Shown: one piece after another, positions 11,417-54,524 of the stretch
Layout of the letters: every line of letters begins with the position of its first letter
Position numbering within the stretch: the stretch's first letter is position 1
Assembly: GCA_965231005.1 (NCBI GenBank)
Contig: OZ246405.1
Coordinates: 610,709-674,708 of the forward strand
Source of the DNA: an uncultured Gammaproteobacteria bacterium
GTDB taxonomy: Bacteria; Patescibacteriota; Patescibacteriia; Magasanikbacterales; UBA922
Reading direction: 5' to 3'
Length of the DNA stretch: 64,000 bases
Program-made: the position numbers and the translations under genes
Notes under the pieces: model-generated
Seen by the model: the letters and a program-made list of their open reading frames with translations, nothing else
Database searches by the model: none
Told to the model about the DNA's origin: nothing

Positions 11417-11636
11417 AACAATTAACAACTAACAATTATCAATTACCAACTTAGTATAGGGTGTTTTTGGCAGAAAGGAATTAGTTATTAGTTACTAGTT
11501 ACTAGTTATTAGCTAACTAAGTCTAGATCTTTCTTGTATTGACTATTAACTATTAGCTAATAGCTAGTAATACCATTCTCAATATAAAGAGTCTTTCTGT
11601 ACTATTTTGCTAATTGTTAATTGCTAATTGTTAATT
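11417..11636. repeat. ~220-bp palindromic AT-rich intergenic element (copy 2 of the element at 3705-3903)
   Basis: Its start (caattaacaactaacaattatcaattaccaacttagtataggg) is the reverse complement of the end of copy 1. Same core ttagttattagttactagttactagttattagctaa. Ends in gctaattgttaattgctaattgttaattATG. Confidence 0.6.
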
Positions 11637-17539: not shown

Positions 17540-17568
17540 TTGACAAAATGGTAAAAATATGGTACAGT
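17540..17568 (+). promoter_or_regulatory. Sigma70-like promoter TTGACA-17-(TGg)TACAGT, copy 1 of a duplicated promoter cassette
   Basis: tacttgacaaaatggtaaaaatatggtacagtttgc matches 21721-21756 except for 2 nt. Confidence 0.55.
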
Positions 17569-17791: not shown

Positions 17792-19882
17792 ATGTCACCA
17801 GATCAGAAAAAACCTGATGGTGGTGCACATGGTAGTGCACCGCCGAAACGATCAACACTCGAACTTCATGCTGACAAGATCGTCAGCTTGGTCCAACAAG
17901 ACGGGCCAGAGGAGAACCCCATGACCGACAAGAAGACTGATACAACAACGCCGGGTCATGAGGTTCATGATTCGAATTCTGAAACCCCACCCCCGCTGCC
18001 AAGTGTGCTCGACTCGCTTGCTCCTGAGGACATAGCAAGAATAATAAGAGGAGAATCACAACCACTGCGAAGTGAATTGGTGCGATGTCCGAACTGTGGT
18101 GCTGTCTACCCTATGGATCAGGGAAAGGTCCAGGGTGGTTCTGAAAAGGATCAACAGTGTGTGTTGTGCCTTCATGAATTCACCCTCGGTGATGACAATG
18201 AAGCACAAGCAACAGCACAGTCTGAAACCCCACCACCAGTGCCTTCTTCGAACGTTCCGGCGGACAATGAGAAAATCCAATGTCCGAACTGCAAAACCAC
18301 ATTTCGGTCCATTGAAATCCTGCTTTGGGATCGCAATTACAAGTACGTCGTCTGCAGCCACGGATTCACCATCGATAACGACACTGAAGCACAAGCAACA
18401 GCACAGTCTGAAACCCCACCCCCACCCCCACTTCCGCTTCTCATTGGGGACAATGCCCCAGGTGGGAAGAACGTGACTTGCCCAAACTGCGATAAGGTCT
18501 ATTCACTGGATCCAGCTGACTTTGTAGGTGGTTTCCCGAACGTCTTTCAGTGCGCCCTATGCAATCATTGCTTCACTATCGATGATGAAACTGACGCACA
18601 GGATGACACACCACCTGCAATTCCGACCGCGCAGCAGCGTGCAGACAGAACAGGACTGACTGAGCCGTACAAGCCACTCGCCGACATCAAAGATCCAGAT
18701 GCTGATACGTCCACGATTCGTGAAACCATGCCAAGTCACCCGGGCCAAGCTCGTCGCGCTGAAAGCGATCACTACACGCAGGATGAACTTCCTCGCGTGG
18801 AAGATGAACGTGAAACACGGCAAGACCTTCCTGTTGTCACTGGCGATGATCAAGACACCAAGCCTGACATGGACGTTGTCAAAGCCGAAGACCTCGATGA
18901 AGACGATGCTGCTGAACTGGAAAAGGATGATGGCAAGGAAGCTGAAGAGCTGCCCCCGCCGATTTCAAGTCCCATGTTCAGTCCGGAACTGCGCAAACCA
19001 AACCCTGGTTTTCAGCTGCCTCCTCATCTCGAAGAGGTCGTTCGACTCTCTGCTGCTTCAACTCCCGATTCTCTTGCTTCCGGCGATGACGATCCATTCG
19101 GCGACGGCGGAGATCCCTTTGCTGGCCCAGGCACGAATCCCTTTGCTGTTGACGCAGATGATCCCTTCGGTGCTGAAGTTCCGTTCGGTCCAGGAGATGA
19201 TCTTGGGATGAAGGACGAAGACTACGGTGGTCCGAATGATTCTGTCGACGATGGTGATGAATTGCCTCCTGTCATGCCGGCTGATTCCAGTAAGGCGGCT
19301 CCCAAGCCGTCGCTGATTACTGGTTCCAGACCAAGGTTTCGTCCGACTGGACCTGTGCCTTCGGTTCACGATCAAGACGACAAAAGTGGCCCCCCGCCTC
19401 CTCGTCGTCAAGATCATCGAAAGACAATCCGAGTTCCACGTCATCGGCCGACTGCTCGTCCAGTGCCACCACCACCTCCTGGCCCGGCTCCCATTCGAAC
19501 GCCGACGCCTAGTGGTGGTTCACCCATTCCTGCATCTGCACCTGTTTCTACTCCGCCTCCGGCTGCGAGTACAACAGGACCGTCTGCTGCACCAACCCAG
19601 GCTGCTGCGGCTCCGCCCGCACAGTCACAACCGCCGGCTCCAACTGGGCCAGTGGTTGGTCCGACGGCATCAAGTGGCAGTGCTACTACACCGGTCAAGA
19701 CCAACAAGACCGTTGTGTGGATCATCGCCATTCTGATTGTTGCATGCCTGGCTCTCAATGCCTTTAGCGTGTGGCAAAGCAGAAACATCAGAAAGAACGT
19801 CATCGCGGTTCTGAAACATCGCGCTGGCATCCAAAAGGTCATTCAGGCTCCAATGCCGAAGACCAAGGGGGAAGAGAAATGA
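17792..19882 (+). CDS. Hypothetical protein with N-terminal Cys4 zinc-ribbon-like repeats, an acidic/Pro-rich disordered region and a C-terminal TM anchor
   Basis: GC-rich ORF with a strong SD. Three recognisable CPNC-x15-24-C-x2-C units, each ending in an acidic linker with EAQATAQSETPPP in the first two. A near-identical 35-nt segment recurs at 18197 and 18381. C-terminal helix TVVWIIAILIVACLALNAFSVW. Confidence 0.55.
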   Translation: MSPDQKKPDGGAHGSAPPKRSTLELHADKIVSLVQQDGPEENPMTDKKTDTTTPGHEVHDSNSETPPPLPSVLDSLAPEDIARIIRGESQPLRSELVRCPNCGAVYPMDQGKVQGGSEKDQQCVLCLHEFTLGDDNEAQATAQSETPPPVPSSNVPADNEKIQCPNCKTTFRSIEILLWDRNYKYVVCSHGFTIDNDTEAQATAQSETPPPPPLPLLIGDNAPGGKNVTCPNCDKVYSLDPADFVGGFPNVFQCALCNHCFTIDDETDAQDDTPPAIPTAQQRADRTGLTEPYKPLADIKDPDADTSTIRETMPSHPGQARRAESDHYTQDELPRVEDERETRQDLPVVTGDDQDTKPDMDVVKAEDLDEDDAAELEKDDGKEAEELPPPISSPMFSPELRKPNPGFQLPPHLEEVVRLSAASTPDSLASGDDDPFGDGGDPFAGPGTNPFAVDADDPFGAEVPFGPGDDLGMKDEDYGGPNDSVDDGDELPPVMPADSSKAAPKPSLITGSRPRFRPTGPVPSVHDQDDKSGPPPPRRQDHRKTIRVPRHRPTARPVPPPPPGPAPIRTPTPSGGSPIPASAPVSTPPPAASTTGPSAAPTQAAAAPPAQSQPPAPTGPVVGPTASSGSATTPVKTNKTVVWIIAILIVACLALNAFSVWQSRNIRKNVIAVLKHRAGIQKVIQAPMPKTKGEEK

Positions 19883-21558
19883 ATACGTTTATCAAGGTGC
19901 TACTCGCCATTCTCATCGGGGTTGTGGTCGCTGTGTCCGGCTACTTCGCATGGGAAACCATGAACACGAACAAGGCGCTCCTCGCTGAACTGAACAAGAC
20001 CGACAACGGTGCCCAGGAGGACACCAAGGTCAAGCCGGCGCCGAAGAAGTCGGCTGTCAAGAAAGCTGACAAGGCTTCCACGTCCCAGGCCAAGACGGCC
20101 GGCGACAAGAACGACCCCAAGAAGGTCGAGGAAGCTGCGAAGGCTGCCGAAGCCAAGAAGAAGGCCGAGGCCGAAGCTGCTGCCAAGGCTGCTGAAGCGA
20201 AGAAGAAGGCTGACGAAGCTCGCAACGACTGGGATGAAATCAACTCCCGTGGCGACGACCAACTCAGAGCTGAGAAGTTCGACGAAGCGTTCAAGACCTT
20301 CAAATCCTTGATCGGACACGAGCATCAGAATCATGGACTGGCTTACTACAACATCGCCTGCCTGTTCTCGGTGCAGTCTGTGTCAGACAAGCTCAAGGGC
20401 AAGAAGAAGGCGATTCGCAAGAGCAAGAAGCAAGCCCTCCACTACCTGGCTCAGGCCTGGGTAGCCGGCTACGACGACCTCGAATGGATGGAGAAAGACG
20501 AGGATCTCGATTCGATCCGCAAGACCCGCGGCTACAAAGAGATCAAGCGTCTGGCAGTGGAAAAGGGACTGGTTCGGCTCCCTGCGCCGGCCACCGAAGA
20601 CGTCGCCAAGAAGGCCAAGGATGAGCAGAAGGAACCCACGCCCAAGCTGACCGGCATCCACGCCCTGCGTGCCATGCCGATCAAGGGAGTTGCCGATTCT
20701 GACGAAGCCAGCAAGGCTGACAAGGACGCCAAGCGCATCGCCAACGCCAACGCCAAGAAGGTCAAGGGCAAGAAGGTTCGCAAAGGCAGCCGCGGCATCT
20801 CGTTCCTGGCCAAGGCTCGAGCCGAAGCCAAGCGGATGTACGCCAAGCTCCACAAGGACCAGAAGGCTCGTCGTGCAGCGCTCAACCGTGCGATCGCCCG
20901 ACTCAAGCGTGGCTACAAGCGCAAGAGCGATCTTGACAAGCAGGACGTTGACGACGAGATCGCAGAGCTCAAGCGAAAGGAGCAGGAACAGTCCGACGAC
21001 GAGGATCGGAAAGCCAAGGAAGAGGCCGAAAGGATGCTCGCCGACGGCAAGACCCAAGACGAGGTCAAGGCTATGTACGATGCTCTGGAGCGCAAGCAAC
21101 AGGCTCGTCGTGCAGCGCTCCTCAGCAAGATCGCGGACGAGCAAAGGCAGGCACGACAGCAGCGTCAGGATGATGCAGTCGACCTTCGCGATGAGATCGC
21201 CAAGCTGCGCGAAGCCGACAAAAAGGCTGACACGCAGTCCGCGGCAGCTGCCAAGGATCACGTGCAAGCCTTGTTCGACAAAGCGCAAGCCGCGACCAAC
21301 CGCGCCAACGCAAAGCGCGCGCGTCAACAGCGTCAGCGTGCGGCAGCGCCCTCGCGTCCGAGCTCGCCGCCCAGCCGTCCGGCTTCGGGTGGTTCGTCCA
21401 GCCTCGCACATGCGCCTGCGGCAGTTTCCAGCTGTCCGTATGGTGGAGACGAGGCCAACTGCGTCAAGAAGACGGTCGCGTACTTGACCAAGTTCGGTAC
21501 GCCCCTGGCCGATGCCAAGGGGAGTGCCAAGGCCAAGTGCAGCGCGCGCTGTCTGTAG
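19879..21558 (+). CDS. Membrane-anchored TPR/coiled-coil protein ending in a four-Cys module
   Basis: The ATG overlaps the upstream TGA (ATGA), indicating translational coupling. N-terminal TM helix. TPR-like GLAYYNIACLFS. Lys/Ala/Glu-rich coiled coil. C-terminus SCPYGGDEANCVKKTVAYLTKFGTPLADAKGSAKAKCSARCL. Confidence 0.55.
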   Translation: MNTFIKVLLAILIGVVVAVSGYFAWETMNTNKALLAELNKTDNGAQEDTKVKPAPKKSAVKKADKASTSQAKTAGDKNDPKKVEEAAKAAEAKKKAEAEAAAKAAEAKKKADEARNDWDEINSRGDDQLRAEKFDEAFKTFKSLIGHEHQNHGLAYYNIACLFSVQSVSDKLKGKKKAIRKSKKQALHYLAQAWVAGYDDLEWMEKDEDLDSIRKTRGYKEIKRLAVEKGLVRLPAPATEDVAKKAKDEQKEPTPKLTGIHALRAMPIKGVADSDEASKADKDAKRIANANAKKVKGKKVRKGSRGISFLAKARAEAKRMYAKLHKDQKARRAALNRAIARLKRGYKRKSDLDKQDVDDEIAELKRKEQEQSDDEDRKAKEEAERMLADGKTQDEVKAMYDALERKQQARRAALLSKIADEQRQARQQRQDDAVDLRDEIAKLREADKKADTQSAAAAKDHVQALFDKAQAATNRANAKRARQQRQRAAAPSRPSSPPSRPASGGSSSLAHAPAAVSSCPYGGDEANCVKKTVAYLTKFGTPLADAKGSAKAKCSARCL

Positions 21559-21577
21559 TCTGATCTGGTGAGAACCT

Positions 21578-21645
21578 GGCTTCCCGGTGCTCGTACGTTT
21601 ATTCGTACTTGCATCGGGAAGCCTCCTCACTTTCTTCTTTTTCTT
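21578..21645 (+). terminator. Terminator hairpin ggcttcccggtgctcgtacgtttattcgtacttgcatcgggaagcc plus a T-rich tail
   Basis: Long near-perfect stem immediately after the stop at 21558. Confidence 0.5.
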
Positions 21646-21723
21646 GAAAAGAGGGGAAAGCAGGGAAAATACCTTATTTAAGCCAAAAAAGATAAGTTTT
21701 TATGGTCTATAAAGCCTAAATAC

Positions 21724-21752
21724 TTGACAAAATGGTCAAAATATGGTATAGT
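21724..21752 (+). promoter_or_regulatory. Sigma70 promoter TTGACA-17-TATAGT, copy 2 of the duplicated cassette
   Basis: Near-identical to 17540-17568. Confidence 0.55.
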
Positions 21753-21943
21753 TTCTGGTCAAAATTGATAAAATATATACCCTTATCTATTGGCGTGCCA
21801 GTGCATAATCCATGCAATATGCAGTGCGCGCGAGTGTGATAAGGTACAGAAAATGTACATCGTACATTCTTTGTGTGTCACACCGCTTTCCAGACGTTTT
21901 AACGTCATCCAACAGGTTCATTACATTACTACATCACTACAAC

Positions 21944-22074
21944 TGTTCGATCGGTAAACAAGTTCATAATATTTGTGTACTGCTTTACCGGTCGAACATT
22001 TCACATCGCCTTTCTGACCGGGGGCACAGTTAATTCCAAGGTACGTTACCAAGGAACAAATTGACTGCGCCTGG
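21944..22074 (+). promoter_or_regulatory. Conserved ~130-nt structured 5' leader element, copy 1
   Basis: About 90% identical to 24885-25014. It contains a 14-bp stem GTTCGATCGGTAAA/TTTACCGGTCGAAC and a variable sub-hairpin. Confidence 0.5.
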
Positions 22075-22112
22075 TTTTCTGGGCGACGTGAAACAACAGA
22101 AGGAGGTGCGCA

Positions 22113-23402
22113 ATGGCGTACGCCGTTCGAAAAACCCGATCCGGGGGTGCCGGACAATACGTTTCAGTTTTTTCCGACCGTGCTGCGGTTCTCCGAAAAA
22201 TCGCGCGAGGGATGATCCGCAAGGGTGCGTTCATTCGCGTGGTTCCGGACACGGCTGCTACCAACGATGGCGAGAAGGCCGCAGTCAAGGCTGATCTGGA
22301 TAACGCGGATTTCGTGCTCATCGAGAACCATCCGCATTTCGCTGGCATCAACTTCCCGGCGCCTGCTGACGCTTCGGCTGCTGCGACTGCGGATGCTGCG
22401 GCCACCCGTGCGAATGCCAATGCTGCTGCGGCCAATGTGACCGTTGCGGAGGCTACTGCTGCTCAGGCTCAAACCGAAGCCGACGCTGCTAACGCTCGTG
22501 CCAACGCTGCTGATGCCGCCACTGCTCAGGCCAACGCCGAGGCTACTGCTGCTCAGGCTCGTGTCGACGTTGCCAACGCTGCTGCTGCTCAGGCCAACGC
22601 CGAGGCTACTGCTGCTCAGGCTGCTGGGGATGCTGACGCTCAAGTTGCTGCTGCAGAGGCTGTTGCGGAGGCTGCTGCTGCTCAGGCCGATGCTGCTCAG
22701 GCACATGCCGACGCGGTTCAGGCTGCTGCGGATGCTGCTCAGGCTGCTGCGGATGCTGCTGACGCTGCTACCCAGGCTGGTGCTGCTGCCGGTCAGGCTC
22801 TGATCGCTACCAGTCAAGCTCGGGATGCTGCTGCTGAGGCTGAGGCTGAGGCGCTCGAGGCACAGGCCGATGCGGACGATGCTGCTGCCTTTGCTCAGGC
22901 TCAGGCCGACGAGCGGGCCAATCGCCGTTCGGTTCGGTTCGTCGCGTGGCTGCGTCGCAACTGGAAGAAGGTTCTGCTGGCTCTGCTGGTTCTCCTCCTT
23001 CTCGGTTGCGTGTGGTTCTTCTGGAGCAACATCAAGGCCCTGGTCACGGGGGGTGGTGGTTCGCCGCCGCCTTCGGTGGTGAACCCGCCGACCCCACCGA
23101 CGCCGCCCGTTCCGACGCCGCCCGTTCCGCCGCCGCCGGCTGCGACTCCGGTCGTTCCGCCGCCGACGGTGACGCCTCCGCCACCGCCCGCGACTCCGCC
23201 GGTTTCGCCGACGGTCACGCCTCCGCCGACCCCGCCGACTTCGGGGGGCACGGCAGCGCCGACTGGACAGCCTGGCTGTCCGTTCGGTGTGGGGTACACG
23301 GACTGTTACACCAAGACGGTGGCCTACCTGGTCAGCCATGGTGTGGCGACTTCGGACGCGCAGGACAAGGCGCGCGAGAAGTGCGGACCGCGTTGCAGGT
23401 GA
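22113..23402 (+). CDS. Bitopic protein with an Ala-rich repeat region, a Pro-rich linker and a C-terminal four-Cys module paralogous to the one at 19879
   Basis: SD aggagg. Repeats AATAAQANAEATAAQA. TM helix VLLALLVLLLLGCVWFFW preceded by a basic stretch. PPTPP linker. C-terminus GCPFGVGYTDCYTKTVAYLVSHGVATSDAQDKAREKCGPRCR. Confidence 0.55.
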   Translation: MAYAVRKTRSGGAGQYVSVFSDRAAVLRKIARGMIRKGAFIRVVPDTAATNDGEKAAVKADLDNADFVLIENHPHFAGINFPAPADASAAATADAAATRANANAAAANVTVAEATAAQAQTEADAANARANAADAATAQANAEATAAQARVDVANAAAAQANAEATAAQAAGDADAQVAAAEAVAEAAAAQADAAQAHADAVQAAADAAQAAADAADAATQAGAAAGQALIATSQARDAAAEAEAEALEAQADADDAAAFAQAQADERANRRSVRFVAWLRRNWKKVLLALLVLLLLGCVWFFWSNIKALVTGGGGSPPPSVVNPPTPPTPPVPTPPVPPPPAATPVVPPPTVTPPPPPATPPVSPTVTPPPTPPTSGGTAAPTGQPGCPFGVGYTDCYTKTVAYLVSHGVATSDAQDKAREKCGPRCR

Positions 23403-23824
23403 TGTAGCCTGTTGGAGGGAAGCCCGCTACCGGCGCATGCATTCGTGTGTGTGTCCGGTAGCCCTCCAACCGCTTTCTTTTATAAAAGAGAAAGAGGTTG
23501 GGGGAATACAAAATTAGAAATTGGAAATTAGGGATTAAGTGTATTGACATATTGAGTAATAGAGAAAAGAAATTTTCTTTAGTACTCAGGGTGTCATGTA
23601 GACATTATTGTAAAATTACAATGTGTCTCGTGTCCTGATTAGACAGGTTCATTATAATTTAGTTGAAGAATAACTATCTGGTGGGTAAAAAGATAATATA
23701 CATATGTTACTTTTTTTCTCACCAGATAGTGGCACGTGCCGCTTGTTTCTTCGTCGCCCTTGGGGCATTTCACAAATGGCCCCATCGGTGAGGAGGGGCA
23801 AGGCAACAACAACAGGAGGACGCG

Positions 23825-24724
23825 ATGAACATCCGTCTCGTTTCGTTCATGATCGTCGCATCGGTGACGGTCGGTTTCATTTCCATCAACTCATTCGCGC
23901 AGGCACCGGCCGACTACCCAGCCGTTCGCGACGATGCGCACAAGGGTGCTTCGCTCGCCGAGTCCAACGCCAAGCGCCTGACCGCCCTGGAGAAGCGGAT
24001 CAAGCGGCTCAAGCGCGCCAAGGCTGCGGCCAAGGCCAAGCACACGGCCAACCCGACCCCCGCCAACAACGTCGCTCTGAAGGCCGCGGTCCGCGCGCTC
24101 GACGAGGCCAAGAAGGCAGGTCTGTCCATGTGCGCCCTGAAGACTGGCGAGGATTTCCGGCACTGCATCGACGTCGTGGAAGGCAAGGTGTTCGAGGTGG
24201 AGAAGGACTCCATCCGGATGGCCGCGCTGCTCGCAGTCGGCTGCATCGTGAAGGAGAACAAGTCCACAGATCCTTCCAAGGGTTCGAAAAAGGGCGCATC
24301 CATCACGACCACCGAGCTCGTCTGCGACAAGGACAAGGCCAAGAAGGCGCCGCGCTGCATCCGGTTCAAGCGCTTCAGCAAGCACGCGCACACCTACTTC
24401 GACGTCGGCGGTGACAACTGCAAGGAAGAAGACAGCAACCCGCTGCCCAAGAAGCCGGCGACTCCGCCCAAGCCCAAGGCCGAACCGTGGTCCAAGGGCA
24501 AGCGTTTGCTGGCCAGCGCTGGCATGTGCCTGCTGGCCGGTGGTGTGCTCGCTGTTCCTGGTTACGTCATCGGCGACGCCATCGAGGGCGGTCACTGGGA
24601 GACCAATCCGGAGACCGGCAACGACGACTGGTATGCGCCCAAGGGTCCGCTCGGTGCTGGCATCGGCGGTCTGACCGGCTGCCTCAGCGCGTTCGCGGGC
24701 ACATGGAGTGCGACGAGCGAGTAG
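23825..24724 (+). CDS. Secreted Cys-containing hypothetical protein
   Basis: SD aggagg. Signal peptide MNIRLVSFMIVASVTVGFISINSFAQA. Seven Cys residues. Gly-rich hydrophobic C-terminal segment. Confidence 0.5.
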   Translation: MNIRLVSFMIVASVTVGFISINSFAQAPADYPAVRDDAHKGASLAESNAKRLTALEKRIKRLKRAKAAAKAKHTANPTPANNVALKAAVRALDEAKKAGLSMCALKTGEDFRHCIDVVEGKVFEVEKDSIRMAALLAVGCIVKENKSTDPSKGSKKGASITTTELVCDKDKAKKAPRCIRFKRFSKHAHTYFDVGGDNCKEEDSNPLPKKPATPPKPKAEPWSKGKRLLASAGMCLLAGGVLAVPGYVIGDAIEGGHWETNPETGNDDWYAPKGPLGAGIGGLTGCLSAFAGTWSATSE

Positions 24725-24884
24725 CCTTTCTTCAACTGCTGAATCTGTCGGGGGTTGGTAGCATGTTCATTCATGTCTGTCAACCCCCGTCGGAATATCT
24801 TTCTCTTTGTAAAAAGGGAGAGATGAACGATTATTGTTCATTACAATTGAGAAACTACTACAGAAACATCTTGAATACCTTTTG

Positions 24885-25014
24885 TGTTCGATCGGTAAAC
24901 AAGTACATAACATTTGTGTACTGCTTTACCGGTCGGACATTTCCACATCGCCTTTTTGACCGGGGGCACAGTTAATCCGTGGCGTGTTGCCGCGGACCAA
25001 ATTGACTGCGCCTG
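24885..25014 (+). promoter_or_regulatory. Conserved ~130-nt structured 5' leader element, copy 2
   Basis: See 21944-22074. The same position relative to the downstream SD and start. Confidence 0.5.
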
Positions 25015-25071
25015 AGAAATTGGGCGATTGTGGAATGATTCGGGCGAGACCCGAGAAAAGAGAGGTAACTC

Positions 25072-28000
25072 ATGAACAGCAAGCTCAACACGATTTCCGT
25101 TTGTTTCGTGGCGCTGATGATCGTTTTCGGGTGCAGCCCGGACGCGAGCTACAAGCCCAACGACCCCAAGAACCCCAACCCGGCCCGCAAGGCCGATGCC
25201 AACAACAGCGACACCAGCAGCGCGGATGCGGGTTCGAGCGCGGATACCGGTCAGCCGACCGATCCGTGCGCCGATCCCAAGTTCTGCAACGATGGCAAGG
25301 TCTGCACGGCCGACACCTGCAAGGACGGCAAGTGCAAGCACACCATCGACGCGACGCTCTGTGATGACGGCAACCCCTGCACACATGACCTGTGTGACGA
25401 CCTGGGGATCTGTGTGAACAAGGCTCACGAAGGTTCGTGCCAGGACGGGAATGCCTGTACTGTGGGTGATCATTGCAAGAATGGCACCTGCCAGTCGGGA
25501 AAGAACATGCCCTGTCCCAACGAGAACTCGTGTGTCATCGCAACCTGCAACCCGAAAGAAGGCAAGTGCAACTACGAGCCCAAGAGCGGTGACTGCAACG
25601 ACGGCAACAAGTGCACGGTTGGCGATTTCTGCATCAACCAGAAGTGCAAGAGCGGTTTCAAGAAGTTGGACTGTGATGACAAGAACGTGTGCACGACTGA
25701 CAGCTGCAATCCAGAAGACGGTTGTGTTCACAAGCCGATCGACCTTCCCTGCAGCGACAACAGCTCGTGTACCATCTCGGATAAGTGCAAGGACGGAAAA
25801 TGCGTGGGCCAGGTTGTCAACTGCGACGACAAGAACCCGTGCACGACCGACTCGTGCGATCCGGCGGCGCCCCCGGGCAAGGCATGCAAGCACGTGAACA
25901 ACACCAGCGAGTGCGACGACGGCAACAAGTGCACGTCCGGCGACGTTTGCCAGGATGGTCAGTGTAAGAAGGGAACCACGTCGGTCGATTGCGACGACGG
26001 GAACCCGTGCACTACCAATTCCTGCGACGCCAAGGTCGGCTGCCAGAAGCTCAACAACAACAACTCGTGCGACGACGGCAACAACTGCACCATCAATGAC
26101 AAGTGCTTTAACGGCAAGTGCAACTCCACTACCAAGAAGTGTGGCGACAGCAACAAGTGCGTCACCAACACGTGCGACCAGGCAACTGGCGCGTGTGTGA
26201 AAAAGGAGCTGTGCGACGACGGCAAGGCCTGCACCGAAAACACGTGCGACATCAACACCGGCAAGTGCGAAAACCCTGACAAGAAGTGCGACGACGGCAA
26301 GGCCTGCACCAAGGATAGCTGCAACACCACCACGGGCAAGTGCGAGTACGAGATGATCGTTGGTGCGAACTGCTTCTGCAAGTTCGACTCCAACTGTGAC
26401 GACGGAAACGAGTGCACTGTCAGCGCATGCGATAAGGCGACTGGCAAATGCGCGCTCGCGAAGAAGTACAGCGGGACCTCGTGTGACGACGGGAACCCGT
26501 GCACCACCTCGGACAAGTGCGACCCCAAGACCGGCAAGTGCTCGTCGGCAAAGGCCACGGCCTGCGACGACGGGAACCCCTGCACGGACGACTCCTGCGA
26601 CCCCACGGTCGTTGGCGGTTGTGTGGCGGTGAAGAACAACAAGCTGTGTGACGACGGTGACGCGTGCACCAAGGGTGATATCTGCCTGGACGGCGCGTGT
26701 AACCCCGGCAAGGCCCCGGTCTGCGACGACGGCAACATCTGCACGGATGACAGCTGTGACTCGAAGCTCGGATGCAAGAACACGGCCAACTCGGCCAGCT
26801 GCTCGGATGGGAGCGCCTGCACCTCAAACGACAAGTGCGAGGGCGGGAGCTGCAAGAGCGTTGCGGTGAAATGCGACGACTCCAACCCCTGTACCGACGA
26901 TAGCTGCGACGCGAAGGTCGGCTGCAAGTACGCCAAGAACACCAAGCCGTGTAACGACGGTGACGAGTGTACCATCAGCGAGGTGTGCAAAGACGGCAAG
27001 TGTGGTTCTGGCAAGGCCAAGTCGTGCGACGACAACAAGAAGTGTACCATCGACTCGTGCGACAAGGACAAGGGCTGCCAGCACAAGCAGATTTCCTCGG
27101 CGACCTGCTGCGCTTCGGACGCTGAGTGCGACGATAAAAAGCCGTGCACGGTGGACAAGTGCGATCCGAAGGAAGGTTGCAAGAACACCAAGAAGCTCTG
27201 CTCGGACAACAACCAGTGCACCGACGACGTGTGTGATCCCCAGTCTGGAGATTGCAAGCACACGAAGTTCAGTGGACCGGCCTGCGACGACGGCAACAGT
27301 TGTACCAAATCCGAGAAGTGCGAAAAGGGCAAGTGCGAAGCTGGCTTTACCATCAAGTGCAACGACAACAAACCCTGCACCAAGGATACGTGCGACACCA
27401 AGGGCGGATGCGTCTTCACCAAGACCGTGGATCCCTGCGACGACGGGGACGCGTGTACGAATGGAGACAAGTGCGCCAATGGCGAGTGCGTGTCTGGCAA
27501 GCAGATCGTCTGCGACGACAACAAGGTCTGCACGACCGACAGCTGTGACTCCAAGAAGGGGTGCGTGTTCGCGAACAATTCGGATGCCTGTACGGACGGA
27601 AACGCCTGTACACCGAATGACGTCTGCAAGGACGGCAAGTGCTCGTCGCAGCCTGAGAACTGTGACGACGCGAACGCGTGTACCAACGACAGTTGTGACA
27701 AGAGCAAGGGCTGCAAGCACATCAACAACACCAAGGTCTGCAACGACGGCAACAAGTGTACGGACAACGGAGTCTGCAGTGGCGGCGCCTGCAAGCCGGG
27801 CAAAGCCATCAACTGCGACGACGGCAAGAAGTGCACGACGGATAGCTGTGACCCGACCACGGGCAAGTGCAAGAACGTGGCGCTGGTGTGCGATGACGAC
27901 GCCTGTACGGATGGCGATGGCAAGTGTGACGAGAGCACGGGCAAGTGTGCAGTGGGTCTTCCCAAGAACTGCACTGACACCGACGTGTGTACCAAGAATT

Positions 28001-28593
28001 TCTGCTCGGAAGGAACCTGCAAGGTCTCTCCGAACTGCGATGACGGGAACGCATGCACGGCTGATAGCTGTGACCCAAAGAAGCCCGAGAAGGATCAGTG
28101 TTCGCACGTCCCGATCTCGGGTTGCAAGTCGGTCGAGGTCAAGCTCTCCGTGGTTTTTTCTGAGATGTTCAAGATGGAAGCCGCACCCAAGGGTGGCAAC
28201 TACGTCCGGTTCTTCGTCAAGAAGTGCGAGGCCAAGGCTGCTGACGGCTCGTCCGTCATGTTGCTCAAGCCTGGCTCCTTCTACGGAGGCGCTGAGATCA
28301 AGAACAGCTCGAAGCTCGAGTACACCAATCCTGCAAAGGTCCAGGACTTCGTGCAGATCCCGAAGAATGCCTGCTGCATCAACATCGTAGGGTACCAAAG
28401 CAGTAAGATCTCCAATCCTTACGGGGACTCGAAGATCTGGGCTTTCAGTACGACTCCCAATACCAAGACCCACAACATGGAGCCGGTCCTCACGACCAGC
28501 AATGGACTGACGTACAAGTTCACGTTGAAAGACGTCCATGACAACGGTGTGGGGGGATACGACGCGTGCAACAGCGAAGTCATCTCCAAGTAG
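25072..28593 (+). CDS. Giant lipoprotein with ~60 tandem Cys-rich repeats (CDDGNxCTxDxCD...) and a distinct ~170-aa C-terminal domain
   Basis: Signal/lipobox MNSKLNTISVCFVALMIVFGCS. Regular ~12-aa repeats with an invariant Cys-Asp-Asp-Gly-Asn-x-Cys-Thr pattern, reminiscent of Myxococcales-type Cys-rich repeats. The repeat register confirms the + frame. Confidence 0.65.
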   Translation: MNSKLNTISVCFVALMIVFGCSPDASYKPNDPKNPNPARKADANNSDTSSADAGSSADTGQPTDPCADPKFCNDGKVCTADTCKDGKCKHTIDATLCDDGNPCTHDLCDDLGICVNKAHEGSCQDGNACTVGDHCKNGTCQSGKNMPCPNENSCVIATCNPKEGKCNYEPKSGDCNDGNKCTVGDFCINQKCKSGFKKLDCDDKNVCTTDSCNPEDGCVHKPIDLPCSDNSSCTISDKCKDGKCVGQVVNCDDKNPCTTDSCDPAAPPGKACKHVNNTSECDDGNKCTSGDVCQDGQCKKGTTSVDCDDGNPCTTNSCDAKVGCQKLNNNNSCDDGNNCTINDKCFNGKCNSTTKKCGDSNKCVTNTCDQATGACVKKELCDDGKACTENTCDINTGKCENPDKKCDDGKACTKDSCNTTTGKCEYEMIVGANCFCKFDSNCDDGNECTVSACDKATGKCALAKKYSGTSCDDGNPCTTSDKCDPKTGKCSSAKATACDDGNPCTDDSCDPTVVGGCVAVKNNKLCDDGDACTKGDICLDGACNPGKAPVCDDGNICTDDSCDSKLGCKNTANSASCSDGSACTSNDKCEGGSCKSVAVKCDDSNPCTDDSCDAKVGCKYAKNTKPCNDGDECTISEVCKDGKCGSGKAKSCDDNKKCTIDSCDKDKGCQHKQISSATCCASDAECDDKKPCTVDKCDPKEGCKNTKKLCSDNNQCTDDVCDPQSGDCKHTKFSGPACDDGNSCTKSEKCEKGKCEAGFTIKCNDNKPCTKDTCDTKGGCVFTKTVDPCDDGDACTNGDKCANGECVSGKQIVCDDNKVCTTDSCDSKKGCVFANNSDACTDGNACTPNDVCKDGKCSSQPENCDDANACTNDSCDKSKGCKHINNTKVCNDGNKCTDNGVCSGGACKPGKAINCDDGKKCTTDSCDPTTGKCKNVALVCDDDACTDGDGKCDESTGKCAVGLPKNCTDTDVCTKNFCSEGTCKVSPNCDDGNACTADSCDPKKPEKDQCSHVPISGCKSVEVKLSVVFSEMFKMEAAPKGGNYVRFFVKKCEAKAADGSSVMLLKPGSFYGGAEIKNSSKLEYTNPAKVQDFVQIPKNACCINIVGYQSSKISNPYGDSKIWAFSTTPNTKTHNMEPVLTTSNGLTYKFTLKDVHDNGVGGYDACNSEVISK

Positions 28594-28776
28594 TTCTCAA
28601 GAAAATGATCACTCCCTCCTGCGCAATGTGATCTGCCGTGGACGGGCTCGAGCCTGAAACTCGAGTCCGTCCCGGCCGCGCAACTCCGAATATGATTCAC
28701 GTCTATTCGGAGCTCCCCAAGGTTCATTTTTCCTCAGAAAAGTGGACACTTGTAAGAGTTAAACATAGGTACAGGA

Positions 28777-53456: not shown

Positions 53457-54524
53457 ATGATAAATTCCAAAGCATTGGAAAATAGCAGAAAGAGCATCTT
53501 GTCCGCTTTCTACTGTTTTCTTTTAGCCATGGCAGTGGCACTAATACTGTTTGTTCCTACGAGTTTTGCCTCAGCAGCCTCAACATTCGGAAACAATGTC
53601 TCGATAGGTGGGACTCTTACCCAGACAGGAGCAGCAACATTTGACGGAGTAATTCAACCAGCGTCAAACAATGGTGAAGACATTGGAGCATATGGTGCAG
53701 CATGGAGTGAAGTGTTTGCATCAGGAACAGTTCACATTGGTGAAGTAACAAGCGCAAATGAATCTACAACAGCAGGAGATGTAAACATTGGTGGACAGCT
53801 TGTCGTAGACGATGAAATTTTTGCAAGTAGTACGATTACAGTACAAACATCTATTCTTCCATATTCACACGATGGAGCTGACATTGGTACAAATGGTACA
53901 GCAGCATGGAATGACCTGTACACATCAGGAACAGCATTCATAGGTGATGTAAATAGTTCCAATCAGGCAACAACAGCAGGAGATGTGAATATTGGTGGAC
54001 AACTTGTAGTAGATGATGAGATTTATGCAAGTAGTACAATTACCGTACAAACATCAATTTTGCCATATTCACATGATGGAGCTGACATTGGTACAAATGG
54101 AACAGCAGCATGGAATGACCTGTACACATCAGGAACAGCATTCATAGGTGATGTAAATAGTTCCAATCAGGCAACAACAGCAGGAGATGTGAATATTGGT
54201 GGACAACTTGTAGTAGATGATGAGATTTATGCAAGTAGTACAATTACCGTACAAACATCAATTTTGCCATATTCACATGATGGAGTTGACGTTGGTGGAT
54301 GGACTCAGGCATTTAACGATGTATTTGCATCAGGAACTATGAGGAATGCAACTAGCACGACACATAATACAACTGGATCAAGTACATTGTACATAAAGAG
54401 TGGTTTAGCTAATGTGGGCGGAAGGATAGTTATTGAGGATCTTGATGGAGCCGGCTGTAGTCAACTTATGGTTTTGAACGGAACACTTACAACAAGATCA
54501 GTTACATGTCCTGATGATAAGTAA
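53457..54524 (+). CDS. Secreted protein built of 68-aa tandem repeats
   Basis: Signal peptide. Repeats GDVNSSNQATTAGDVNIGGQLVVDDEIYASSTITVQTSILPYSHDGADIGTNGTAAWNDLYTSGTAFI. Confidence 0.5.
   Translation: MINSKALENSRKSILSAFYCFLLAMAVALILFVPTSFASAASTFGNNVSIGGTLTQTGAATFDGVIQPASNNGEDIGAYGAAWSEVFASGTVHIGEVTSANESTTAGDVNIGGQLVVDDEIFASSTITVQTSILPYSHDGADIGTNGTAAWNDLYTSGTAFIGDVNSSNQATTAGDVNIGGQLVVDDEIYASSTITVQTSILPYSHDGADIGTNGTAAWNDLYTSGTAFIGDVNSSNQATTAGDVNIGGQLVVDDEIYASSTITVQTSILPYSHDGVDVGGWTQAFNDVFASGTMRNATSTTHNTTGSSTLYIKSGLANVGGRIVIEDLDGAGCSQLMVLNGTLTTRSVTCPDDK
53737..54284 (+). repeat. 204-bp tandem repeat, ~2.7 copies; copies 2 and 3 are essentially identical at the nucleotide level
   Basis: 53941-54144 equals 54145-54284 base for base. 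Copy 1 (53737-53940) is diverged. Confidence 0.6.

Follow-up and report, generated by a model that had tools for sequence, protein, structure and literature searches.

We analyzed a 64-kb stretch of bacterial DNA (the window) that carries, at 25072..28593, a gene for a cysteine-rich, putatively lipid-anchored protein, here called g5; features lie on the forward strand unless stated otherwise. g5 is a real gene with an intact open reading frame (ORF) of 1,173 amino acids (aa), as a first-pass annotation made from the sequence letters had proposed. Its product contains 156 Cys (13.3%), fewer than the roughly 180 of that annotation, together with 150 Asp, 140 Lys, and 2 Arg in total. The protein starts with a signal peptide and the lipobox IVFG-C21 (aa 1-21; 25072..25134), assigned by a PROSITE-style rule. 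A 44-residue low-complexity linker rich in Pro, Asn, Asp, Ser, and Ala follows in the translation (aa 22-65; 25135..25266) and leads into approximately 36 Dicty_CTDC repeats with four Cys each (aa 66-1018; 25267..28125), recognized by Pfam family PF00526 and by repeat parsing. The last segment (aa 1019-1173; 28126..28590) is a C-terminal domain predicted to be all-beta and containing 5 Cys, which appears lineage specific in Pfam, PDB, and HMMER searches.

The Cys-rich array is one unbroken run from aa 66 to aa 1018, a single array behind a lipobox as originally described. Its unit was misjudged, having been read as about 60 octapeptides of the form Cys-Asp-Asp-Gly-Asn-x-Cys-Thr with three Cys each; the exact CDDGNxCT motif occurs just 10 times. 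The actual unit spans about 25 aa (range, 22 to 36) with four invariant Cys in the spacing C-x5-C-x4/5-C-x3-7-C and is present in approximately 36 copies. Two types of unit, A (CDDxNxCTxDxCDxxxGC) and B (CxDGxxCTxxDxCxxGxC), alternate across much of the array, and DNA copies of the same type therefore lie mostly 150 to 168 nucleotides (nt) apart from start to start. These copies are 60 to 82% identical to one another, and Tandem Repeats Finder did not report the g5 array at its repeat period. Thus, the repeats are old, in agreement with the earlier suggestion that they are no product of recent slippage.

The array matches PF00526 with 303.2 bits against a cutoff of 27, in 21 separately scored stretches, which is far above chance. 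The first-pass annotation had likened the repeat to a Myxococcales type and recommended a search with TIGR02232 and Pfam models. TIGR02232 repeats are Cys and Asp rich, have CDDGN-like motifs, and are abundant in Myxococcales. The Pfam part of this search succeeded with PF00526, but a scan of g5 against NCBIfam release 20, which we assume to contain TIGR02232, gave no family at an E value of ≤1, placing g5 in a different repeat family. In taxonomic terms the comparison was apt. A word-indexed protein search returned more than 7,000 homologues, the closest about 44% identical to g5, and we read names, domains, and identities from the best 120; among these, the homologues with a named source come mostly from Myxococcales or Deltaproteobacteria metagenome-assembled genomes (MAGs). 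Many of the homologues listed have further domains (beta-helix/NosD, peptidase S8, C-type lectin, MAM-like, and PKD), and one is annotated as an "extracellular matrix protein" by one source. This variety may fit a general-purpose stalk on which a functional domain is displayed. Members of the repeat family contain little Arg, at a mean of 1%. The g5 Pfam scan gave no metallothionein match and no match to PF11617 (Cu-binding MopE) at an E value of ≤1, and neither the Pfam nor the NCBIfam scan found similarity to S-layer or SLH domains.

PF00526 was listed among repeat families without a known structure in a 2021 survey (PMC8078820), and a PDB sequence search with full-length g5 returned nothing at an E value of ≤0.01. 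We modeled six repeats (aa 498-651) with AlphaFold2 from a 46-sequence alignment of six-repeat segments, in which the four Cys of each repeat are invariant or at least 90% conserved. The model has a predicted local distance difference test score (pLDDT) of 95.9 and a predicted template modeling score of 0.69, with a beta-hairpin in most repeats. A Foldseek search of the PDB with this model found nothing significant. The top match, at an E value of 0.03 and a template modeling score of 0.22, was 9gja_H, the Cys-rich region of the Entamoeba histolytica Gal/GalNAc lectin heavy subunit; this is a Cys-rich adhesin stalk, and at that significance it offers at most an analogy.

The g5 N terminus, MNSKLNTISVCFVALMIVFG followed by C21, satisfies a lipobox rule in the style of PROSITE PS51257, applied as the regular expression [LVI..][ASTVI..][GAS]-C at residues 15 to 35 with a basic n-region. 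Of the window ORFs with 100 aa or more, two pass this rule, g5 and one other. A lipobox is also present in the paralogue P0129 described below (LLAG-C17) and in the orthologue at the related locus L006 (ALSS-C23). The motif suggests that Cys21 of g5 is lipidated.

Beyond the array, the g5 tail begins SVEVKLSVVF and is nonrepetitive. A unique domain had been predicted here; it spans about 155 aa, in place of the 170 first estimated. With this domain, Pfam gave no significant match (best E value, 0.19, at noise level), the word-indexed protein search returned nothing, and a Joint Genome Institute (JGI) metagenome scan with a two-sequence C-terminal alignment gave no match. Nor does the domain occur in any of the 120 top-ranked repeat homologues. 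When 1.84 billion representative proteins were searched exhaustively with HMMER, a single true relative emerged, P0129 (E = 1.1e-12; 36% identity). Two further matches look spurious, as they are repetitive sequences matched over short stretches only. The check proposed in the first-pass annotation, for homologues that hint at a binding or enzymatic function, thus gave P0129 as the sole relative. P0129 shares the g5 layout of lipobox, repeats (about 11 CTDC units), and tail domain, although its linker at the equivalent position is acidic and much longer. The longest contig carrying P0129 is 1,232,850 bp, as it is for the window's own proteins; P0129 is therefore taken as a diverged paralogue in the same genome. 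By these searches, the C-terminal domain is lineage specific.

g5 is the last gene of a five-gene cluster, g1 to g5, recognized by its G+C-rich base composition (17792..28593; 10.8 kb). The 696-aa product of g1 (17792-19882) combines a Zn-ribbon region with a Pro-rich one, and the gene has a G+C content at third codon positions (GC3) of 0.45. g2 encodes a Lys/Ala-rich protein of 559 aa (GC3, 0.75), g3 encodes an Ala/Pro-rich protein of 429 aa with a transmembrane (TM) segment (GC3, 0.60), g4 encodes 299 aa with a signal peptide (GC3, 0.84), and g5 encodes the Cys-repeat lipoprotein (GC3, 0.82). The g1 Zn-ribbon region comprises three Zn_ribbon_4 (PF13717, MJ0042-type) CxxC...CxxC units with TEAQATAQSETPPP repeats between them, followed by a long acidic, Pro-rich region and a C-terminal TM helix. 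The ends of g2 (21400-21555) and g3 (23244-23399) share a motif of about 40 aa with four Cys, CP[FY]G..C..KTVAYL...KC..RC, at 38% identity. This motif belongs to no Pfam family; a related GCPF...VAY...C..C tail closes the g3-like protein of L006 (2468-2629, minus strand).

The first-pass annotation missed that g5 and its four upstream neighbors have G+C-rich codon usage and that this usage is conserved in a relative. The five genes have a G+C content of 0.54 to 0.66, against mostly 32 to 41% elsewhere in the window, and a GC3 of 0.45 to 0.84, against 0.17 to 0.31 in flanking genes. With 26 flanking genes as the host reference, codon preference is inverted at every amino acid examined, as for TGC (0.74 versus 0.15), AAG (0.92 versus 0.27), and ACC plus ACG (0.88 versus 0.15). 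The spacers within the cluster are A+T rich. MEGAHIT contigs that span the left junction of the cluster come from two separate metagenome assemblies, and the right junction is spanned by one contig that matches the window at 100% identity; all of these contigs either match the window at 100% or encode identical proteins. These contigs, together with the same pattern in relatives, rule out an assembly chimera as the source of the jump in composition. Pfam found no integrase or transposase domains in g1 to g4, no tRNA gene flanks the cluster (the only one in the window is at 6723-6799), and none of the repeat families listed (the 20 largest of 25) forms direct repeats flanking it. A literature search for codon usage anomalies in Patescibacteria found nothing.

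The window is bacterial, with tmRNA, tRNA-Asp, L20, L35, IF3, and SmpB genes and many GT4 and Wzy-type envelope genes. Relatives of its IF3 are 59 to 75% identical, and all of the named ones are Candidatus Magasanikbacteria or "Patescibacteria group." The longest contig carrying window proteins is 1.23 Mb, and the genome has 35% G+C. On these markers the host is a Magasanikbacteria-like member of the Patescibacteria, or candidate phyla radiation (CPR), with an A+T-rich, small genome, as had been surmised from the sequence.

Three loci from relatives (L005 to L007) encode an IF3 75% identical to that of the window and other housekeeping proteins 70 to 86% identical, and they share the synteny from pyruvate phosphate dikinase (PPDK) through L20-L35-IF3-SmpB-AI-2E. 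Relative to the SmpB/AI-2E region, each has a G+C-rich block (0.50 to 0.65, versus 0.34 to 0.39) on the same side as the window. This block (1-3500 in L006) contains a g3-like gene, a g4-like gene, and a CTDC-repeat gene with a lipobox, in the order and orientation of the window, with GC3 values of 0.67, 0.74, and about 0.80, against 0.20 to 0.34 in the flanks; the CTDC gene runs off the end of the locus. The L006 g3-like protein has the N-terminal motif of g3, a TM segment, a Pro-rich region, and the C-terminal GCPF...C...C motif. The spacer between g4 and g5 is orthologous in L006, where the blocks CCCGTCGGAATATCTTT and GTTCATTACAAT are kept. Cluster proteins are at most 31 to 39% identical between relatives, compared with 70 to 86% for housekeeping proteins. 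The locus L008 also has a G+C-rich block at the syntenic site (1-2500), and the contig of L009 ends short of the cluster region. In L008, which is more distant, a gene at the block edge (1-481, minus strand) has a precomputed match to Cu-binding_MopE (PF11617). The Cys-rich family at the cluster site may differ between lineages.

Long spurious ORFs of 476 to 699 aa overlap g5, at 25959-28058 and 26824-28539 on the minus strand and at 26960-28390 on the forward strand, because the G+C-rich composition is poor in stop codons. Such overlapping ORFs could mislead gene callers; for the CTDC gene of L006, the gene caller took the wrong strand.

Each of g3, g4, and g5 is preceded by a leader of similar design (21916-22112, 23647-23824, and 24836-25071, respectively). 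The box GTTCATTAYAWT has exactly three exact matches in the window, upstream of g3 (21916), g4 (23647), and g5; the promoter-like box before g5, GTTCATTACAAT at 24836..24847, was identified by sequence match and is the block kept in the L006 spacer. About 15 to 40 nt past each box lies a near-perfect hairpin of about 55 nt. The g5 leader hairpin (24884..24940; 57 nt, with about 25 bp paired) has a folding free energy of -31.9 kcal/mol (z, -8.35) and is 95% identical to the copy in the g3 leader (21944-22002). Folding predicts a second structured part, a long composite stem and a small hairpin, at 24941..25054. The entire g5 leader (24880-25074) adopts a predicted two-domain fold with -91.2 kcal/mol (z, -8.9); the g3 leader has the same two-domain fold (z, -7.0) and is 76 to 95% identical to the g5 leader over about 145 nt. 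A Shine-Dalgarno-like AGAGAGG, read from the sequence (25059..25065), ends 6 nt before the g5 ATG, and a strong Shine-Dalgarno sequence precedes each cluster gene.

The three orthologous leaders of L006 (737-830, 2268-2350, and 3355-3445, minus strand) have the same box and hairpin architecture with other stem sequences. Together, the six box-linked hairpins, three in the window and three in L006, fold with -27 to -36 kcal/mol and z scores of -7.5 to -11.3. Rfam has no family for these leaders, and a metagenome scan for the conserved spacer pattern gave no match. Near-consensus sigma-70 promoters (TTGACA, 17 nt, and TAyAGT with TG) lie upstream of g1 (17540-17568) and g3 (21724-21752) and share 92% identity over 37 nt; the g3-like gene of L006 has a close counterpart upstream, TTGACA...TAAAGT (about 3590-3620, minus strand). 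Hairpins with T-rich tails, read from the sequence, resemble terminators after g2 and g3. A 13-bp inverted repeat, GGACGGGCTCGAG/CTCGAGTCCGTCC (28640..28672; likewise read from the sequence), lies 47 nt past the g5 stop and was not called by the terminator scan because no T-run follows it. The leader hairpins are plausibly 5' mRNA stabilizers of abundantly expressed envelope genes, and the box with its hairpin may be a new leader or mRNA-stabilizer element.

From its sequence features, we consider it reasonably likely that g5 is a lipid-anchored, cysteine-stapled surface stalk or adhesin with a C-terminal binding tip in a Magasanikbacteria-like host. The protein would be exported, its signal peptide cut at the lipobox, and Cys21 lipidated, which would anchor it on the outside of the cytoplasmic membrane. 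A flexible linker of 44 residues would come next. The approximately 36 four-Cys beta-hairpin modules, probably with two disulfides each, would then stack into a long, stiff, protease-resistant rod. The predicted all-beta C-terminal domain of about 155 aa would sit at the distal tip, where it would most likely bind a host or partner cell or a surface. Genes g3, g4, and g5 form a conserved envelope-gene cluster, each gene with its own promoter-like box, stable leader hairpin, and strong ribosome-binding site.

An alternative to the adhesin is a structural envelope component. In such a role, g5 would be S-layer or matrix like, forming a coat with g3 and g4, and its C-terminal domain would mediate self-assembly in place of adhesion. 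g5 is clustered with secreted or membrane proteins of low complexity, each with a strong promoter-like box, a stable 5' hairpin, and a Shine-Dalgarno sequence. Stable 5' hairpin leaders and strong expression signals are typical of abundant, long-lived mRNAs, such as those of ompA and S-layer proteins, and the Dictyostelium proteins that carry the PF00526 repeat are matrix and spore-coat proteins. The "extracellular matrix protein" label on one homologue points the same way. However, g5 has no similarity to known S-layer or SLH domains in the scans described above, and one lipid-anchored rod bearing a distinct tip domain is a layout seen more typically in adhesins. The fast divergence of the cluster proteins fits diversifying interaction surfaces, although it would also fit exposed coats. 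We regard the coat role as rather unlikely.

Several observations weigh against the stalk and its tip as well. The C-terminal domain has no informative homologue, its single-sequence AlphaFold2 model is unreliable (pLDDT, 34), and the binding role of the tip is argued from the architecture of the protein. The disulfides and the rod geometry are inferences. The exact g5 protein is absent from a protein collection that contains the proteins of its neighbors. Finally, g4 and its counterpart in L006 are matched by position and general character, without significant sequence similarity.

The composition of the cluster raises a separate question of history. If g5 had been acquired horizontally and recently from a Myxococcota-like donor rich in G+C, it would be a foreign passenger, with too little time elapsed for its composition to drift toward that of the host. 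The inverted codon preferences relative to the 26 flanking genes speak for such an import, as do the source-named homologues, which among the matches listed come mostly from G+C-rich Myxococcales and Deltaproteobacteria MAGs. Lys-rich, Arg-poor homologues in uniformly G+C-rich contigs have a composition like that of g5 (GC3, 0.66 to 0.76 in L010). Elsewhere in the window, an isolated G+C-rich gene (4596-5423) has no counterpart by tblastn in the relatives' loci and so looks like a genuine lineage-specific insertion. However, a relative with 70 to 86% housekeeping identity has the same block, gene order, CTDC lipoprotein, and orthologous spacer elements. At fourfold sites, six flanking orthologue pairs share 45% identity, where saturation would give 34%; with these sites near saturation, a cassette already present in the common ancestor should have lost much of its GC3 through neutral decay. 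The island has no integrase, transposase, or flanking tRNA, the closest homologue is just about 44% identical, and the paralogue in the same genome has diverged to 36% identity. The cluster is older than the split from a relative whose IF3 is 75% identical and is therefore not a recent import, an origin that we judge quite improbable.

Recent transfer thus fails to account for the composition of the cluster. The repeats themselves are uninformative on vertical descent versus replacement, because the copies from Magasanikbacteria are no closer to one another than to Myxococcales proteins (42 to 50% identity). We also considered whether the Lys-rich, Arg-poor composition marks g5 as a native protein of an A+T-rich genome and rejected this, as Arg scarcity is family-wide and Lys-rich members occur in G+C-rich genomes. 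The G+C-rich codon usage makes plausible an ultimate origin of the cluster in a G+C-rich lineage rich in the repeat family, such as a Myxococcota-like one. We tentatively propose a combined reading, a possibility that we would not yet call probable: the Magasanikbacteria envelope-gene cassette that includes g5 would be ancestral and vertically inherited, its GC3 of about 0.8 would be actively maintained against about 0.25 elsewhere, and the GTTCATTAYAAT box, followed by a sequence-variable hairpin of about 55 nt, would constitute an undescribed module dedicated to the expression or stability of this cassette. What maintains the GC3 could be selection acting on the mRNA, through stability, structure, or the translation kinetics of secreted disulfide-rich proteins. 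Alternatively, it could be repeated cassette replacement or biased gene conversion with DNA of G+C-rich partners.

The remaining functional alternative, that g5 is an extracellular metal-binding or redox-buffering protein whose 156 thiols chelate metals in the manner of metallothionein or MopE and form no disulfides, is highly improbable: the 13.3% Cys content, the PF11617 match at the corresponding block edge in L008, and the anoxic groundwater that many CPR inhabit, where extracellular disulfides are less favored, speak for it, but g5 has no PF11617 or metallothionein match, and a strict four-Cys period with conserved Gly, Asp, Asn, and Thr and a confident beta-hairpin model is typical of disulfide-stapled modules, and Dictyostelium uses the family as an extracellular structural repeat.

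The closest known counterparts of the g5 array are bacterial Dicty_CTDC giants from Myxococcales and Deltaproteobacteria MAGs (for example, P0001, P0003, and P0017), which have the same four-Cys repeat of about 25 aa and the same A/B alternation. Among the matches listed, these are 34 to 45% identical to g5 over 46 to 94% of its length. They are 937 to 2,052 aa long (mostly 1.2 to 2 kb of protein) and belong to large, uniformly G+C-rich genomes, whereas g5 lies in a CPR genome of 35% G+C. They carry beta-helix, lectin, MAM-like, PKD, and peptidase domains, whereas the g5 tail occurs in none of the best 120. The proteins that define PF00526 are those of Dictyostelium, of the EcmA/EcmB type. They share the Pfam repeat with g5 and are extracellular structural proteins, but they are eukaryotic, have no lipid anchor, and have other flanking domains.

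Within the CPR, Candidatus Peribacter riflensis encodes large, very Cys-rich extracellular proteins with signal peptides and a proposed role in attachment, for which the authors noted a weak resemblance to Cys-rich repeats of Myxococcus (PMC4736985). g5 resembles this description in its CPR host, its length of more than 1,000 aa, its signal peptide, and a Cys content far above the proteome average. The Peribacter proteins belong to another phylum and contain 7% Cys, versus 13% in g5, and Dicty_CTDC repeats, a lipobox, and a shared tip are unreported there. The Peribacter genome itself has 58% G+C, and the contrast in composition is therefore absent. Since large Cys-rich extracellular proteins have been known from complete CPR genomes since 2016 (PMC4736985), the kind of protein that g5 represents is already known, and to call the array unexpected in a small-genome organism, as the first-pass annotation did, was an overstatement. 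The features of g5 that merit attention are the orphan tip domain, the conserved codon anomaly, and the box and hairpin leaders.

Patescibacteria are thought to live attached to other cells, and few attachment molecules are known. A g5-type stalk that is lipid anchored, stapled by disulfides, and tipped by a lineage-specific domain, with two diverged paralogues in the genome, would be a concrete attachment candidate and a handle for antibodies or tagging. If the pattern of base composition holds genome-wide, it would point to gene-specific forces on composition in a minimal genome. The rule that atypical G+C content means recent transfer could then fail, and binning based on composition may lose such genes from CPR bins.

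Other features of the window lie outside the cluster. The isolated G+C-rich gene at 4596-5423 (forward strand; 59% G+C; GC3, about 0.70) encodes an Arg-rich protein of about 275 aa with no Pfam match and lies between the PPDK and tRNA-Asp genes, behind a good TTGACA-17-TATACT promoter. The product of the PPDK gene (567-3704) is extended at its C terminus by about 250 aa, which include a predicted TM segment and an extra domain; relatives keep the length of this extension (protein of 1,036 aa in L005 to L007). Intergenic arrays of short, A+T-rich TAGTTATTAGTTACTAG-like repeats, at 3755-3839 and 11482-11636, recur in several spacers. Three tandem repeats of 204 nt, 77 to 83% identical to the reference copy, lie at 53697-54308 within an ORF of 355 aa (53457-54524).

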